From the IMG/VR virus record IMGVR_UViG_2061766007_000731: a DNA stretch of 7,076 nt; one strand, 5' to 3'. Positions 1-5,362 of the stretch are shown here, in pieces (the first letter of the stretch is position 1; each line of letters opens with the position of its first letter). Origin of the DNA: an uncultured virus (IMG/VR IMGVR_UViG_2061766007_000731). Its lineage: Duplodnaviria; Heunggongvirae; Uroviricota; Caudoviricetes. The notes under the pieces are model-generated. The model was not told the DNA's origin, searched no databases, and saw nothing but the letters and a program-made list of their open reading frames with translations. Both the position numbers and the translations under genes were made by a program.

Positions 1-61
1 TAATTTAATTAAATTATTATAGTCACTCCAAACGGCTTTGCTCCGTTGACCCATACATTAA

Positions 62-707
62 CCTACTACTCTATATTACTATAGCCAGTTATTAACTGTT
101 GTAGTCTGGACTATTTCATAACCATATTATTTCTAACTTAGGTTGCAGGTACATAGTCTCTACACATTTACAATATTTCTACTGATTTAGCTCGTCGTTG
201 TCCATTTTTGGAGTTTCGTCGAATTCGCCTGCTTCTACATTCAAAATTTCTTTTGACGCACTCTTAAAATAATTATTAAATGTATGATCTTTAATAAAAA
301 TAATTCCTTTCATTTGGCTATTTTTAGGTATATCTTCTCTGACATAGACACATGTTTTATCTCCAATTTCTTCAATATTAAACATAATACAANNNNNNNN
401 NNNNNNNNNNNNNAAAGCAATAATATCTACTTCATTTTTATATTTGTTTCTTGCTTTATTAGTAGTATGATTTTTACTACTTTCACATCTGCAACATCAT
501 GAATTATTATCTGATTTACAATCAGTATATTTAACTTGAACTTTTTTCAATAAAGATCCATTATCTATAATTAAATCATATCTTGCATTATCTCCAAATG
601 GAAAAGAAACTGTACAACCTCATTTAATAAACTCATAGGCTATTGCAATTTCTCCTAAATTACCTTTTGTTTTAGAATTTATCATATATTTATAATTATT
701 GGTTTAA
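62..707 (-). ncRNA. Group I self-splicing intron in tRNA-Lys (position 34/35), with homing endonuclease ORF starting in the P1 loop
   Basis: Minus strand shows IGS GAGUGC (263-258), P2 UCAAAA-GAAA-UUUUGA (256-241), P3 GCAGG/CCUGC (232-228 / 149-145), P AAUUCGACGAA, Q AACGACGAGC, R GUGUAGAGACUA, S UGAAAUAGUCC, an ACUAC/GUAGU terminal helix and terminal G at 62. The 5' boundary is inferred at the gap edge. Confidence 0.9.
179..685 (-). CDS. Intron-encoded PD-(D/E)XK homing endonuclease (I-Ssp6803I-like), ~168 aa when TGA is read as Trp
   Basis: Manual translation from ATG 685: MINSKTKGNLGEIAIAYEFIK*GCTVSFPFGDNARYDLIIDNGSLLKKVQVKYTD..., with the KG..GE / P.GD..RYDLI / VQVK motifs of group I intron PD-(D/E)XK nucleases. 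It is in frame with the listed ORF 179..385. In-frame TGA at 622-620 and 499-497; ends at TAG 181-179 inside the ribozyme core. Confidence 0.85.
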
Positions 708-750
708 NNNNNNNNNNNNNNNNNNNNNNNNNNNNNNNNNNNNNNNNNNN

Positions 751-935
751 TCTCATTTATTATTATACAATAATAAATTAATAACTTCTCGACATTTGAA
801 TAGAGCGTCAAATTGGTTATTAATTTCAAAATTTTCCTTTTTATATGGTCATAATGCTTCTCCAGATTCTTTGCCATAAATTGCAGCATTTAAATAAGCA
901 AAAGCTGCATACAATTGTCTATCTTTTTCGTTCAT
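751..935 (-). CDS. Small hypothetical phage protein (about 60 aa or more), requires TGA=Trp; 3' end at TGA 755-753 or inside the gap
   Basis: ATG 935 after an A-rich leader: MNEKDRQLYAAFAYLNAAIYGKESGEAL*PYKKENFEINNQFDALFKCREVINLLLYNNK*. The frame stays open for 31 codons after TGA 851-849 in very AT-rich DNA. Confidence 0.6.
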
Positions 936-1070: not shown

Positions 1071-1625
1071 TTATTCTACAAAAGAATTAGGATGCTTCTT
1101 TCTATCCGTTGCGGAAGTGTTTTTACTACCAACCGTAGCATCTACATATTTTTGAATATCTTCGGCTTTGAATATAGTGGCTGTTATTTGCTTATGAGGA
1201 CACAGCCAGTACTCATCAAGACATTTAGAGCATCCGTTGCAGAGTTCTTTCTTGGCGAGTTCGAGGAGCTCCGCCGCTTGAGCATTCATTACTTCATTCC
1301 ACTTCTTCTCGTCCCATTTTTTTGTTGCAAAGAACTCAAAGTCGTTTTTCAAATAATCTGACAATGCTTGGGCAAGAGGTGTCAACGGCTCATTAGCAAC
1401 GAGAACAAGGTCAAGGTTAGACGGCTTTGCATTGAATTTCCCATCTATATACCATCCCGCAGCATATTCATATCCCTCTTGCACATAAGAGCCGAGGATT
1501 GGCGTACCTTCCTTGTCCTTGTAATCCCAGCGGTAAATTTTTACGGGGTACCCAGATTCAGTAACCACTGTGTACTCGCCCGATTCAATCTGGGGGCGAA
1601 ATTTGATATCAAAAGGAATTTTCAT
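1071..1625 (-). CDS. Hypothetical phage protein (MKIPFDIKFRPQIESGEY...), 184 aa
   Basis: Long ORF ending TAA. ATG 1625 is preferred over 1667 because it lies 1 nt after the upstream stop (1629-1627). The N-terminus resembles small Bacteroidales phage proteins (from memory, not searched). Confidence 0.8.
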   Translation of the reverse strand: MKIPFDIKFRPQIESGEYTVVTESGYPVKIYRWDYKDKEGTPILGSYVQEGYEYAAGWYIDGKFNAKPSNLDLVLVANEPLTPLAQALSDYLKNDFEFFATKKWDEKKWNEVMNAQAAELLELAKKELCNGCSKCLDEYWLCPHKQITATIFKAEDIQKYVDATVGSKNTSATDRKKHPNSFVE

Positions 1626-1626
1626 A

Positions 1627-1851
1627 TTACATAGAATTAAGTTTATTAACAACTTCTTGAAATGCAAGGTCTCTTGTTATTGCATTCTCGTGTGGAACGG
1701 CTCTTGTCTCTTCTATCCACTCCAGCAAAGCGTCCTTGCGGATGTACTCAATATCTTGACTGTTTTTATAACCACATGGGACATTAGTAAATGTATGGGA
1801 AAGGAAGCCAGTGCGTTCATACAATACATAAATTTTATCTGGTGCTATCAT
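1627..1851 (-). CDS. Hypothetical phage protein, 74 aa
   Basis: ORF preceded by AAGGAGG, ATGA overlap with the upstream gene, TAA stop. Confidence 0.8.
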   Translation of the reverse strand: MIAPDKIYVLYERTGFLSHTFTNVPCGYKNSQDIEYIRKDALLEWIEETRAVPHENAITRDLAFQEVVNKLNSM

Positions 1852-2180
1852 TTGTTTTCCTCCTTCAAAAGTGAAATTGCTTTCTCCATCGCAGGGATGG
1901 CATTATCGTTATACCATTTGCGTACAAGAGTATCAATTTCTTTTTTGCTTCTCCCATTAATATAGCCGCTTTCGATAAGAAGTATCGGTTCATACTCTCC
2001 TGCTGGTTCTCTTACATTGTCTATAAAATACAAAGAACATTGTGCCGTATTATCCGGCCAATATCGTGTATAAGCGGTTATCAGGTCAAAATCAAGGTCT
2101 CTTTTCCCGCAGCAGTCATCAGTCCAGACGGCATTTCGCGTAACATCTATTCCGAGATATATCTTATCAGATGCTTTCAT
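1848..2180 (-). CDS. Hypothetical phage protein, 110 aa
   Basis: AGGAGG 7 nt upstream of the ATG. Ends TGA immediately followed by TAG, so it terminates under either genetic code. Confidence 0.8.
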   Translation of the reverse strand: MKASDKIYLGIDVTRNAVWTDDCCGKRDLDFDLITAYTRYWPDNTAQCSLYFIDNVREPAGEYEPILLIESGYINGRSKKEIDTLVRKWYNDNAIPAMEKAISLLKEENK

Positions 2181-2191
2181 TTATTTTCCTC

Positions 2192-2299
2192 CTATTTAAT
2201 TAATGGCAACATTATGAAGTACCATAATATTTGAAAACCCACAAACCCAACAATAAAGGCAAGTGCGTTTCGTAAGGATTGTTTTTCGTTATCTTTCAT
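2192..2299 (-). CDS. Small single-pass membrane protein, 35 aa
   Basis: AAGGAGG then ATG 2299: MKDNEKQSLRNALAFIVGFVGFQILWYFIMLPLIK, TAG stop. Fills the space between neighbouring genes. Confidence 0.65.
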   Translation of the reverse strand: MKDNEKQSLRNALAFIVGFVGFQILWYFIMLPLIK

Positions 2300-2312
2300 T
2301 TGTTTTCCTCCT

Positions 2313-2490
2313 TTAGTGTTTTAACCTACAATGAATACCTAAAACAAATGGAAACTCTAACCAGCAAAGGGGTACAAGTATTAATATGAAAAACAATATC
2401 TTTCCTGCCGAACTTTTGAAATTGTCCCATTCGACACTACCTACCGTAAATAGTAGGCTGAATAGATNNNNNNNNNNNNNNNNNNNNCAT
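2313..2490 (-). CDS. Small hydrophobic protein, N-terminus partly masked
   Basis: Open frame 2465->2313: LFSLLFTVGSVEWDNFKSSAGKILFFILILVPLCWLEFPFVLGIHCRLKH*. ATG 2490 follows GGAGG but is in frame only if the N gap length is inexact. Confidence 0.5.
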
Positions 2491-2493
2491 ACC

Positions 2494-2577
2494 TTATCCC
2501 TCCTTTACGATGATGATGCGAACATTCTGCCCGTCCTTCTCGGCTTTCAGTTTTTCTGCATCAATGTATTTTGCCAT
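2494..2577 (-). CDS. 27-aa mini-ORF, possibly an internally deleted gene remnant
   Basis: MAKYIDAEKLKAEKDGQNVRIIIVKEG*, starting 3 nt after the upstream stop and ending 3 nt before the next ATG. Confidence 0.5.
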   Translation of the reverse strand: MAKYIDAEKLKAEKDGQNVRIIIVKEG

Positions 2578-2580
2578 AAT

Positions 2581-2997
2581 CTAAATCAAATTTTCTAAAC
2601 AATATTTAATAGCAGCTTCACAGGCTTCTTCATAAGTTTGATAGAAGACCTCATCAACGGCATCTTGAAGCATCATTTCAAAATCTGAATCAGTTTTCTG
2701 GATAACCACATAATATCCCGTGTGGCCTCCGCAAGCCCAGGAATCAAGCATTACCTGAATATAATAATGATGTACTTCCCTCAGCCACTTCATAGCCATT
2801 TGAAGAGTTGGAGCGGAATAACATTTATGTGGTTCTATTGTATTATCTAAATCACTATTAGACAATGGGGCAGATAGAGTAGTAAACAAAATGCCAACTG
2901 CTTCTTTTTCTTCATAACAGTGAAAAGAAGCATAATCAAACCCCTTCTCTTTCAGGAGTTTTGCCACTTCAAAGGAAACATAATCTTCTGTAACCAT
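2581..2997 (-). CDS. Hypothetical phage protein, 138 aa
   Basis: ORF MVTEDYVSFEVAKLLKEKGF...APTLQMAMKWLRE...TYEEACEAAIKYCL, tightly packed with neighbours. Resembles a common Bacteroidales phage family of unknown function (from memory). Confidence 0.85.
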   Translation of the reverse strand: MVTEDYVSFEVAKLLKEKGFDYASFHCYEEKEAVGILFTTLSAPLSNSDLDNTIEPHKCYSAPTLQMAMKWLREVHHYYIQVMLDSWACGGHTGYYVVIQKTDSDFEMMLQDAVDEVFYQTYEEACEAAIKYCLENLI

Positions 2998-2999
2998 AG

Positions 3000-3395
3000 T
3001 TATTTAGTTTTATACATTCCTTCAGGTGCATCAAGAGCAAGTCCTTTTTCAATCAAACCTCTAAAATCAAACATATGTTCATTAAGCCAATCATATGTCT
3101 TAATTGTTGGATAATCTTGAATTGATAATGTTTTTGTATAATTATACTCTCTTTTTTCTTCCTCGGTCATACTTGACATTGGACGAAGATATGGTTTGAC
3201 TTCCCCAATTTTAAAAGGTCTGCTGCCACTTTCAGANNNNNNNNNNNNNNNCCACCCATCGAATGTATCTGGGTAAATGTTAGTTATTTTCCAATGCGGA
3301 ACTTCAAATTCATTTTCCTTATAGTCAACGATTACCCCATAAGGTAATCTTGCGCAAAGGTCTTTCAACAGCAATTGTTTTTCTTCTTGTGTCAT
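3000..3395 (-). CDS. Hypothetical phage protein, ~131 aa
   Basis: ORF MTQEEKQLLLKDLCARLPYGV...KPYLRPMSSMTEEE...DFRGLIEKGLALDAPEGMY, in frame across a short gap, TAA stop. Resembles a common Bacteroidales phage family (from memory). Confidence 0.85.
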   Translation of the reverse strand: MTQEEKQLLLKDLCARLPYGVIVDYKENEFEVPHWKITNIYPDTFDGWXXXXXSESGSRPFKIGEVKPYLRPMSSMTEEEKREYNYTKTLSIQDYPTIKTYDWLNEHMFDFRGLIEKGLALDAPEGMYKTK

Positions 3396-3516
3396 ATAGA
3401 TAATATTTTATTTTATTTATACATACAAATAANNNNNNNNNNNNNNNNNNNNNNNNNNNNNNNNNNNNNNNNNNNNNNNNNNNNNNNNNNNNNNNNNNNA
3501 TTATTTAATAATTAAG

Positions 3517-3555
3517 TAGTCTTGCTGGGACTCCAACCCAGAACTTACAGATTAT
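3517..3555 (-). tRNA. 3' half of a tRNA (anticodon N-A-U Ile/Met type, or N-C-U Arg); 5' half not visible
   Basis: Minus strand: ATAA-TCTGT-AAGTT-CTGGG TTGGAGT CCCAG-CAAGACT-A, with correct spacing for tRNA positions 35-73 and a perfect T stem. No matching 5' half in unmasked sequence. Confidence 0.7.
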
Positions 3556-3996
3556 TTAATAGTTCTATACCTATAAAAACGATCACTATTTTTATTTTTA
3601 AATTTGTATGTATCTAATTGACTATCACAATTTGGACAAATACAACGTAAATTATCACGTTTATTATTCGAAGCATGANNNNNNNNNNNNNNNNNNNNAA
3701 ACTAATTTTTGACCATTTCATTCAGGAGATATACCACAAATAGCACACTTATTATCTTGTTCTTTTAGTATATCCTCTTTAAAAATCCTTGGAGAATAAT
3801 TAGCTCTCATTATACTTGGGTCTCCATCAATTATTAATTGATACTTTTGTTTATGTTGAAACTGTTGTTGACATTGTAATGAGCAATATTTTCCATTATG
3901 TTCTGGATATTTTATAAATTCTTTTCCGCAATTAATACATTTAGAAATAGGATAGTTTTTATTAACCTCGATTTTATTATTAAATTTACTATGTTT
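3552..3996 (-). CDS. HNH endonuclease with Cys-rich zinc-binding motifs, start hidden in gap, requires TGA=Trp
   Basis: Manual translation: ...KCINCGKEF...GKYCSLQCQ...KCAICGISPE*NGQKLV[gap]HASNNKRDNLRCICPNCDSQLDTYK...RTIK-TAA. This matches the HNH pattern C..C....WNG..L.L.LDHIDG...NN...NLR..CPNC.SQ. The two visible halves are one nt out of frame across the 20-N gap, probably from inexact gap length. Confidence 0.85.
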
Positions 3997-4538
3997 NNNN
4001 NNNNNNNNNNNNNNNNNNNNNNNNNNNNNNNNNNNNNNNNNNNNNNNNNNNNNNNNNNNNNNNNNNNNNNNNNNNNNNNNNNNNNNNNNNNNNNNNNNNN
4101 NNNNNNNNNNNNNNNNNNNNNNNNNNNNNNNNNNNNNNNNNNNNNNNNNNNNNNNNNNNNNNNNNNNNNNNNNNNNNNNNNNNNNNNNNNNNNNNNNNNN
4201 NNNNNNNNNNNNNNNNNNNNNNNNNNNNNNNNNNNNNNNNNNNNNNNNNNNNNNNNNNNNNNNNNNNNNNNNNNNNNNNNNNNNNNNNNNNNNNNNNNNN
4301 NNNNNNNNNNNNNNNNNNNNNNNNNNNNNNNNNNNNNNNNNNNNNNNNNNNNNNNNNNNNNNNNNNNNNNNNNNNNNNNNNNNNNNNNNNNNNNNNNNNN
4401 NNNNNNNNNNNNNNNNNNNNNNNNNNNNNNNNNNNNNNNNNNNNNNNNNNNNNNNNNNNNNNNNNNNNNNNNNNNNNNNNNNNNNNNNNNNNNNNNNNNN
4501 NNNNNNNNNNNNNNNNNNNNNNNNNNNNNNNNNNNNNN

Positions 4539-4574: not shown

Positions 4575-4675
4575 GGCCCCATCATTAAATAGGAGGTGTA
4601 AGAATCTATCCTATAATAGTTTTTTAAGTCAAATCTTATGAAGTTCTACAATTTGTCTTTGATGCTCATGCATCG

Positions 4676-5362
4676 TAGCTCAGGCCGGACTCGAACCGGC
4701 ACGGTCATTACTGACCAACGGATTTTCTTACCACTATAGTTTTCACTACCAAATTTTACAACCTTTTGACGTGTCACTATTGAAAGTGAATGCCTATTCT
4801 AAGGCTAGACTCGAACTAGCAACATAACCTTGCACGTTATTCCGTTTTAACTAAATTTGTTTGTGGTCTGGACTCTATCTTAACCATATTGAAATCTTGC
4901 AAGAACTATTGTTTTATGTCCATCTTTCAGGTTTAGTACAATAGCAAATTTATTTCAACTTAGGCCCCTCCTGTATAGTCTCTACACACGCCTGTTAGCC
5001 TTCTACCACTCTAAAAGATAGGGCTTCTAGTATGCTAACTGCTTGGCTCGGTATTAGCATATAAAGTCCGTGTTCTTCTCTCTCCTAAACCATCGTTGGC
5101 TATCTTCACAGAAATTCCATTAATAGGAGTATAGGACTTGTCCTTTAAGCTTTAACAAGTTAATTTACACAATTATCCGTATCGTATGCCTTATATTACT
5201 ATAAGTAACGCTGCGCGACCTGTAAAACTTTACTTAGCTTTCACCGAATTAGGGAGGTTCTGCATCTGGAGTTTCCCCCAGTGCACTCAAATTTATAACT
5301 TACTGTCTATCAACAAGTTAAAGACAAAAGTCCGTAGTGTCTACCTATTCCACCACTGAGCC
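4676..5362 (-). tRNA. trnL: tRNA-Leu(UAA) split by a group I intron; exon 1 5362-5328, exon 2 4726-4676
   Basis: Joined exons give GGCTCAGTGGTGGAATAGGTAGACACTACGGACTT|AAAATCCGTTGGTCAGTAATGACCGTGCCGGTTCGAGTCCGGCCTGAGCTA: acceptor GGCTCAG/CTGAGCT, anticodon stem ACGGA/TCCGT, loop CT-TAA-AA, long variable arm GGTCA/TGACC, T arm GCCGG-TTCGAGT-CCGGC, discriminator A. Confidence 0.95.
4727..5327 (-). ncRNA. Group I self-splicing intron (601 nt, no ORF) between U34 and A35 of tRNA-Leu(UAA)
   Basis: P1 exon ACUU pairs with IGS GAGU (5288-5285) including the U.G splice-site pair. P2 CUGGGG-GAAA-CUCCAG (5281-5266), P3 CCUCC/GGAGG (5257-5253 / 4971-4967), P4 UUCGGU/ACCGAG, R GUGUAGAGACUA, S AAGAUAGAGUCC, ACCAC/GUGGU helix, terminal G at 4727. 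Confidence 0.95.

Follow-up and report, generated by a model that had tools for sequence, protein, structure and literature searches.

The window analysed here is a 7,076-nucleotide stretch of DNA from an uncultured virus (IMG/VR record IMGVR_UViG_2061766007_000731), and from position 62 to position 706 or 707 of its minus strand it contains a group I intron. The intron is most probably a mobile element of the tRNA anticodon loop, close to subgroup IC3, that is inserted between positions 34 and 35 of a phage tRNA-Lys(UUU). It belongs to a lineage of phage tRNA introns that recurs in tRNA-Lys(UUU), and is an element of known type.

All features of the split tRNA locus are on the minus strand. 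From 707 downwards, they are a leader, an open reading frame (ORF) at 685-179, the ribozyme, which overlaps the end of the ORF, and the 3' half of the tRNA. Several stretches of the window are masked (N), including 393-413 and the 43 N at 708-750. Relatives of the intron were located in IMG/VR contigs, and related loci are cited by L numbers in what follows. The locus is laid out as follows:

23..61, minus strand: 3' exon of the tRNA (positions 35-73), read in the sequence, with a layout that matches the 3' exons of L049, L039 and L064
62, minus strand: terminal (omega) G and 3' splice site, placed by the helix register ACUAC (105-101)/GUAGU (69-65) plus two bases
62..267, minus strand: ribozyme core, from Rfam RF00028 (289-85), the nhmmer family profile (265-58) and 29 of 30 core pairs
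179..685, minus strand: homing-endonuclease gene in the P1 loop, from the ORF listing, Pfam PF11645, PDB 2OST and PHROG 5018
686..707, minus strand: 5' end of the intron, AT-rich, starting at base 707 or 706 and comprising the 5' strand of P1 together with the leader of the endonuclease gene
708..750, minus strand: masked stretch, predicted to hold the tRNA 5' half (33-34 nucleotides, to U33/U34) and a spacer of about 9-10 nucleotides after the upstream ORF

The ribozyme core

A preliminary description of this DNA, made from its sequence alone, had proposed that a tRNA-Lys(UUU) gene is split by a group I intron. The intron, in a tRNA whose anticodon is xUU, is borne out, and two models match the ribozyme. 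The Rfam model RF00028 (Intron_gpI) matches 289-85 over its full length with 45.5 bits and an E value of 1.3e-10 in a 392-nucleotide search (bases 1-392). The second model is a sequence-only nhmmer profile of the intron's own family, which matches the window at 265-58 in one collinear piece with 121.8 bits and an E value of 8.7e-38.

The family was collected by scanning viral contigs with a motif string taken from the two introns of the window, which gave 108 loci; an earlier, tighter core pattern had given no matches in viral contigs. The alignment from which the profile was built consists of 23 compact, ORF-free phage tRNA introns, with no tRNA-Lys host among them. From these 23 introns, RNAalifold recovered the anticodon stem of the exons, P1 with its U-G pair, P3, P4, P8 and the 3'-terminal helices, and 26 of the 39 consensus pairs show compensatory changes. 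The window intron forms 29 of the 30 consensus core pairs; the lone miss is an A-A opposition that it has in common with its ortholog in L049. The elements of the core, all on the minus strand, are:

267-264: P10 guide, UUAA
263-259: guide, GAGUG
255-242: P2 hairpin with a GAAA loop
232-228 with 149-145: P3
about 162-152: J6/7-P7, which follows P4-P6 and precedes P8
about 113-108: 3' strand of P7, after P8
105-101 with 69-65: helix ACUAC/GUAGU
about 84-71: hairpin with a GUAA loop

The first hairpin of the Rfam alignment (about 286-258) was considered as P1 and rejected, as the family alignment sets the guide at 263-259.

Splice sites and host tRNA

The 3' end of the intron reads GUAGUAGG, its last G being 62, and is followed by UUAAUGUAU. 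In 23 of 23 aligned introns, the terminal G lies two bases past a GUAGU strand that pairs with the ACUAC just after P7. In the window, the same register runs from ACUAC at 105-101 through GUAGU at 69-65 to A64, G63 and G62. Since this register is common to the whole alignment, the terminal G is 62, as the preliminary description had it, and not 63. Some relatives in long-arm (type II) Leu tRNAs also end in ...UAGG, and there the same choice has to be made, since the alternative splice would yield an impossible Phe reading.

On the 5' side, the guide gives a separate view of the exon. Its U260 and G259 complement A31 and C30, two bases that are deduced independently from the stem strand UGUAU of the 3' exon; the next two guide bases complement U33 and C32, and G263 faces the base before the splice. 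Judged from this pairing, the base opposite G263 must be U, as a wobble, or C. A U-G pair is found at the 5' splice site in 20 of the 23 family members and a C-G pair in the other three. In the orthologs L049 and L039, a U precedes the splice and stands opposite the guide G; in the window, the corresponding exon U is either masked or U707. Both orthologs read CAC-UUU-AA and are spliced after the second U, so that the intron begins with UAAC or UAAAC right after CACUU. The window intron starts at 707 or 706, and by the L049/L039 pattern, U707 would be the wobble base. The UUAA at 707-704 could also lengthen P1 by pairing with the UUAA at 267-264.

The P10 helix is formed by four pairs between UUAA at 267-264 and the UUAA with which the 3' exon opens (61-58). 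It tracks the host exon across the family, with UUU for the AAAA of Leu, UAG for the CUAA of Arg, and UUAA or UAA for the UUAA of Lys. The guide fits a 5' exon ending in CACUU, and the adjacent UUAA fits the 3' exon; both complementarities had been pointed out before and are seen in the sequence. The accompanying rule, that a gap ending in ...ACT with splicing before G62 would give a tRNA-Asn(GUU), has to be amended: U707 may supply U34, so that a gap ending in ...CACT need not mean Asn.

The 3' exon (61-23) has a loop segment UUAA, the stem strand UGUAU, a variable loop of 5 nucleotides, a T stem of 5 base pairs, an acceptor strand of 7 nucleotides and A73. U35, U36, A37 and A38 are seen at 61-58. 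The anticodon should be U/C-U-U, or UUU if the base before the splice forms the usual U-G pair, the U34 being inferred from the guide G and the orthologs. The discriminator base is A in the window (at 23) and in eight Lys relatives and G in the Asn(GUU) case, L059; we take A73 to be a mark of Lys and G73 one of Asn. ARAGORN called no tRNA at 23-61, since the mask would cover the tRNA's 5' half.

The best guide to the hidden half is L049, a 167-kb viral contig with a complete tRNA-Lys(UUU) gene, in which the 5' exon ends in CACUU and the intron is 641 nucleotides long. It has the same guide context, identical P3 strands and the same intron end, GUAGUAGG, followed by UUAAUGUA. The mask at 708-750 is of a size compatible with the 34-nucleotide 5' exons of L039 and L049. 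By these comparisons, the host is very likely a tRNA-Lys(UUU). That part of the earlier assignment stands, far better supported than Asn(GUU), with U34 itself a deduction.

The endonuclease gene

The ORF at 685-179 has 168 codons under genetic code 4, two in-frame TGA codons being read as Trp, and stops at a UAG (181-179). About seven of its codons are masked (393-413); the frame and the length agree with L049, whose intron ORF is 71% identical (118 of 166 residues) and has TGA at the same two Trp codons. The protein belongs to Pfam PF11645 (PDDEXK_5), which it matches at residues 2-136, covering profile positions 1-137 of 138, with 92.1 bits (cut-off 26.1; E 4.1e-26). It also matches PHROG 5018 and the structure of I-Ssp6803I (PDB 2OST, E 2.5e-6), an alignment in which YDL and VQVK fall on the catalytic D...(E/Q)-x-K motif. 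Roughly the last 28 codons overlap the guide and P2-P6, and the domain ends just before the guide.

The two in-frame TGA codons imply that the enzyme would be made only while the phage is decoding TGA as Trp. For TGA-recoded phages, Borges et al. (bioRxiv 10.1101/2021.08.26.457843) propose that the recoding delays an intron endonuclease.

Peptide patterns also retrieved free-standing relatives of the enzyme in phage tRNA arrays (L110-L113 and L115), which lack the ribozyme motifs. Two of these PD-(D/E)XK genes, at 1501-1662 in L110 and 1501-1761 in L112, directly follow intact tRNA-Lys genes. These free-standing genes say nothing about the splice sites of the window intron.

Relatives and host range

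The 108 viral loci were resolved by ARAGORN with introns allowed, and the calls were corrected by the terminal-G motif. By anticodon, they are distributed as follows:

UAA (Leu): 68 of 108 loci
CAA (Leu): 7 of 108 loci
UCU (Arg): 5 of 108 loci
CUA (suppressors): 5 of 108 loci
UUU (Lys): 3 of 108 loci (L039, L049 and L064)
UCA: 1 of 108 loci
no ARAGORN call spanning the core, mostly in short loci: 17 of 108
no motif-consistent solution: 2 of 108 (L023, and L059, an Asn(GUU) tRNA split one base later)

The tRNA-Lys(UUU) hosts thus make up 3 of the 89 resolved loci and the tRNA-Leu(UAA) hosts 68. The family occurs wherever the anticodon loop starts with C-U-U/C, as the conserved guide GAG requires, a host pattern that is compatible with a selfish element spreading among compatible sites.

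In L039 and L064, the same ribozyme occupies the same site in tRNA-Lys(UUU) as in L049. The intron of L039 carries an HNH gene with three in-frame TAG codons, and that of L064 a 60-codon remnant of an HNH gene. In all three ORFs, whether of the PD-(D/E)XK or the HNH type, the codons for K-S-A overlie the guide, and this fixed K-S-A implies that enzyme cassettes have been swapped upstream of a constant ribozyme. A Lys-specific pattern retrieved five more loci from metagenome contigs, in each of which the same intron end is joined to a Lys-type 3' exon with a standard T-loop and a discriminator A. Two of the five were called as tRNA-Lys(ttt) by ARAGORN, with introns of 227 nucleotides (L129, no ORF) and 827 nucleotides.

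How the family moves to another host can be seen in the Lys case: the ribozyme and GAG stay constant, only P10 and two further bases of the guide are altered, and the cassette for the enzyme has been exchanged, being either a PD-(D/E)XK gene with TGA recoding or an HNH gene with TAG recoding. It also bears on how unusual the host is. Four classical classes of bacterial tRNA introns, in Leu, Arg, fMet and Ile2, are given together with 17 new ones by Williams 2020 (bioRxiv 10.1101/2020.01.27.920355), whose running text names these four but not Lys, so Lys does lie outside the four classical hosts, as had been said. To call it a rarely reported host was an overstatement, given the same lineage in tRNA-Lys(UUU) at 3 of the 89 resolved IMG/VR loci and at the five metagenome loci.

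Among the other hosts, the CUA tRNAs of L017, L022, L024, L037 and L087 and the UCA tRNA of L103 have an anticodon that exists only after splicing; ARAGORN mislabelled these split, stop-codon-reading tRNAs as Glu, Ser or Cys.

Proposed splicing and homing, and alternative explanations

The locus would be transcribed as a single precursor, which would then fold. The end of the 5' exon, C-A-C-U-U, would pair with the guide GAGUG, with U34 opposite G263 as a wobble, and free guanosine would attack after U34. The 3' exon, starting with UUAA, would be positioned by P10 on the adjacent guide bases UUAA, and ligation of the exons after G62 would produce the UUU anticodon. The enzyme, of the I-Ssp6803I family of PD-(D/E)XK nucleases, presumably cuts intron-less tRNA-Lys genes of co-infecting relatives, and repair of the cut gene would copy the intron in. 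Production of the enzyme would be timed by the decoding of TGA as Trp.

Several points weigh against this account. The RF00028 score lies below the curated gathering score of 50, and Rfam searches of the whole window, at the gathering threshold and with E values up to 10, recovered no intron. In the window, the intron is interrupted by a long ORF in P1 and by stretches of N, which break the Rfam model; in a 20-kb search, Rfam also failed on the introns of L039 and L064. Cut-offs of 18-20 bits have been used for this intron type (Williams 2020). At 708-750, the mask hides the 5' half of the tRNA together with U34. No RNA run is listed among the public runs with the sequence. The sole public run covering the exon, X1, shows 0 differences and is maybe not independent of this DNA. 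Contigs matched to the N-free bases 1-392 showed no joints and are uninformative on splicing; X7 holds relatives of 86-252 and 273-391, and X3 and X6 only the conserved core.

The remaining points concern the body of the tRNA. Its T-loop, AGCAAAG at 36-42 (minus strand), does not follow the standard U54 U55 C56 purine57 A58. Among 185 other resolved, uninterrupted tRNAs in the fetched loci, the T-loop starts with UU in 173, with UC in 8 and with AG in 2. No relative with the window's tRNA body was found in viral or metagenome contigs: an exact 30-nucleotide pattern of the 3' exon gave 0 matches in viral contigs, a 3'-exon pattern with a free T-loop gave 0 matches in metagenome contigs, and a 17-nucleotide T-arm pattern gave 12 matches, all in unrelated coding DNA. 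The loss of U54 and U55 and the lack of relatives would be expected if the intron and its enzyme were alive while the host tRNA was decaying, the locus being kept only as the home of a selfish element. This is unlikely. The 5-base-pair T stem and the anticodon-stem strand are intact, as are the guide pairing and P10, and the two other AG-type T-loops, in a tRNA-Ile(GAU) of L003 (2261-2334, plus strand) and a tRNA-Ala(UGC) of L009 (947-1022, minus strand), are both found with D-loops that lack GG, which suggests a tolerated variant of the elbow, albeit with U at position 58 there and A in the window, whose own tRNA has its D-loop under the mask. The combination of an AGC T-loop with a D-loop without GG may represent a variant form of the tRNA elbow that recurs in phages, and the window tRNA may be either tolerated or impaired.

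A gene split for counter-defence or for timing is a further possibility, less likely again, in which the precursor would be immune to anticodon nucleases or the tRNA would be released late. The nucleases PrrC and PARIS AriB target tRNA-Lys(UUU), and an intact anticodon loop is absent from the precursor; the enzyme gene, for its part, is readable only under TGA-as-Trp decoding, in line with the delay proposed by Borges et al. Such a role would be compatible with a mobile intron in tRNA-Lys(UUU) and additive to it. The host range speaks for something else, however. Lys accounts for 3 of the resolved loci against 68 of 89 for Leu(UAA), 7 for Leu(CAA), 5 each for Arg(UCU) and CUA, and 1 for UCA, and what these hosts have in common is a loop start of C-U-U/C for the guide GAG, not sensitivity to nucleases. 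Moreover, the spliced product would have an ordinary UUU anticodon loop, and compact copies without an enzyme exist, such as the 227-nucleotide intron of L129. The cleavage-resistant or timed tRNA-Lys reservoir suggested in the preliminary description is therefore unsupported. A more elaborate form, in which the loop-less precursor, perhaps with its odd elbow (AGCAAAG), is an uncuttable store of tRNA-Lys(UUU) and splicing and the TGA-gated enzyme couple its release to the code switch, is a shade less probable still.

That the host is instead a tRNA-Asn(GUU), with the intron ending at G63 and G62 opening the 3' exon, is very improbable. The end ...UAGG does offer two adjacent G residues, ARAGORN called the ortholog L049 'Asn(gtt)', and the family includes a genuine Asn(GUU) intron in L059. 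However, the helix register described above puts the terminal G at 62, and with the Asn splice the guide GAGUG would place U33 opposite A262, without a U-G wobble. The L059 gene itself is split one base further on and its intron ends in ..GGUAAAG, with a discriminator G, as opposed to the A of the window and its eight Lys relatives.

Just as improbable is a 3' half that is an orphan fragment or part of a split, trans-spliced gene, with no 5' half in the gap: the 43 bases are unseen and the upstream ORF (935-753), without a visible stop under code 4, enters the mask, but the length of the gap suits an exon of 33-34 nucleotides and a short spacer, the intron start at 707-704 directly follows the mask, like the exon-intron boundary in L049 and L039, and the guide and P10 are still complementary to the predicted exons.

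Comparison with known systems

The closest classical counterpart of the intron in tRNA-Lys(UUU) is the bacterial and plastid tRNA-Leu(UAA) intron (subgroup IC3; 'Leu.3Ug' in Williams 2020), which is inserted at the same site, 34/35, after loop base 3. The two share the terminal G, the guide GAG with C-U-U and the core, and probably the U before the splice. The second intron of the window and 68 of the 89 resolved viral loci are of this tRNA-Leu(UAA) type, and the Lys intron can be matched to them in the alignment column by column. The Lys intron differs in its host, in a P10 of UUAA rather than UUU, in a guide that is lengthened to GAGUG and fits the Lys stem, in the endonuclease gene in its P1 loop and in its phage setting.

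The intron of the Synechocystis PCC 6803 tRNA-fMet gene, which encodes I-Ssp6803I (PDB 2OST), is likewise a group I element of a tRNA anticodon loop and carries a PD-(D/E)XK enzyme of PF11645 (Bonocora and Shub 2001, as cited in PMC3984707). It interrupts another tRNA at another site ('fMet.2Ug', Williams 2020), and the likeness of the proteins is distant (E 2.5e-6 over about 100 residues). Unlike its counterpart, the gene in the window is TGA-recoded and runs with its tail into the ribozyme core.

The introns of L049, L039, L064, L129 and L131 are at the same 34/35 site in tRNA-Lys(UUU) and have the same guide AAGAGUG, 3' end and start of the 3' exon. The tRNA body of the window differs from theirs in the acceptor, the T arm and the non-standard T-loop. 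The endonuclease is shared with L049; the HNH gene of L039 uses TAG as a sense codon, L064 retains a remnant, and the L129 intron lacks an ORF.

The window intron presumably also resembles that of Azoarcus, in its small core, in P2 and P9 hairpins with GNRA loops (GAAA and GUAA in the window) and in a similar J6/7-P7. The Azoarcus intron has another host tRNA and site ('Ile2.5Ug') and no ORF.

According to the review of bacterial group I introns by Hausner et al. 2014 (PMC3984707), all phage introns then known were in protein genes, despite the many tRNA genes of phages. Literature searches turned up no paper describing phage tRNA genes with group I introns; against this, a single motif scan of viral contigs gave 108 loci with such introns. 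Standard tRNA finders overlook the split Lys gene and mislabel the neighbouring Leu gene. Since ARAGORN misses the former, calls the latter 'Stop(tta)' and calls L049 'Asn(gtt)', the tRNA sets of recoded phages are under-counted.

Other interrupted tRNAs and the phage setting

Besides the split Lys gene, the window contains at least two more tRNA genes. One of them is a tRNA-Leu(UAA) gene at 4675..5362 on the minus strand, with a 601-nucleotide group I intron of the same family at 5327-4727, spliced as CUU|...G|AAAA after U34 (5328). The intron ends in GUGGUAAG at G4727, forms 30 of 30 core pairs and is matched by the nhmmer family profile in four collinear pieces. ARAGORN, with introns allowed, spans 4675-5362 and labels the gene 'tRNA-Stop(tta)', where the terminal-G rule gives UAA; in a recoded phage, that label could pass for a suppressor. 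At about 4790-4830 (minus strand), the extended P9 of the Leu intron has a hairpin resembling the standard T arm of a tRNA, with a 5-base-pair stem and the loop UUCGAGU.

A further tRNA part lies beside an HNH-type ORF at 3510-3990 (minus strand), which has one in-frame TGA, is partly masked and ends about 10 nucleotides before it. In this 3' part, an acceptor strand comes after the T-loop, which reads UUGGAGU and has G at position 56. It may belong to a third interrupted tRNA, the 5' part of which, and any ribozyme, would sit in the 541-nucleotide mask at 3998-4538.

Several ORFs of the window need TGA as a sense codon, and 3 of the 9 window proteins match PHROG families, all of unknown function. 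The DNA runs containing the adjacent 1.7 kb carry the label bovine gut metagenome, and the two that contain it in full are perhaps not independent of this DNA. A tblastn search of phages with a 198-amino-acid neighbour protein gave no match. The sole match in the phage collection is a 92-nucleotide stretch of the core in a 735-kb uncultured phage (L001), in which no group I motifs and no split tRNA were found.

The ORF at 753-935 (minus strand), 61 codons long, has an internal in-frame TGA and ends in a TGA right before the mask. Read with code 4, it shows no stop in the visible sequence and would abut or enter the predicted start of the tRNA. Further along, the ORFs at 1071-3400 have no internal TGA and this part of the window has 35-44% G+C, while the flanks have 20-30% G+C and ORFs with TGA as a sense codon. 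This mosaic of composition and coding is compatible with the early/late split described for recoded phages.

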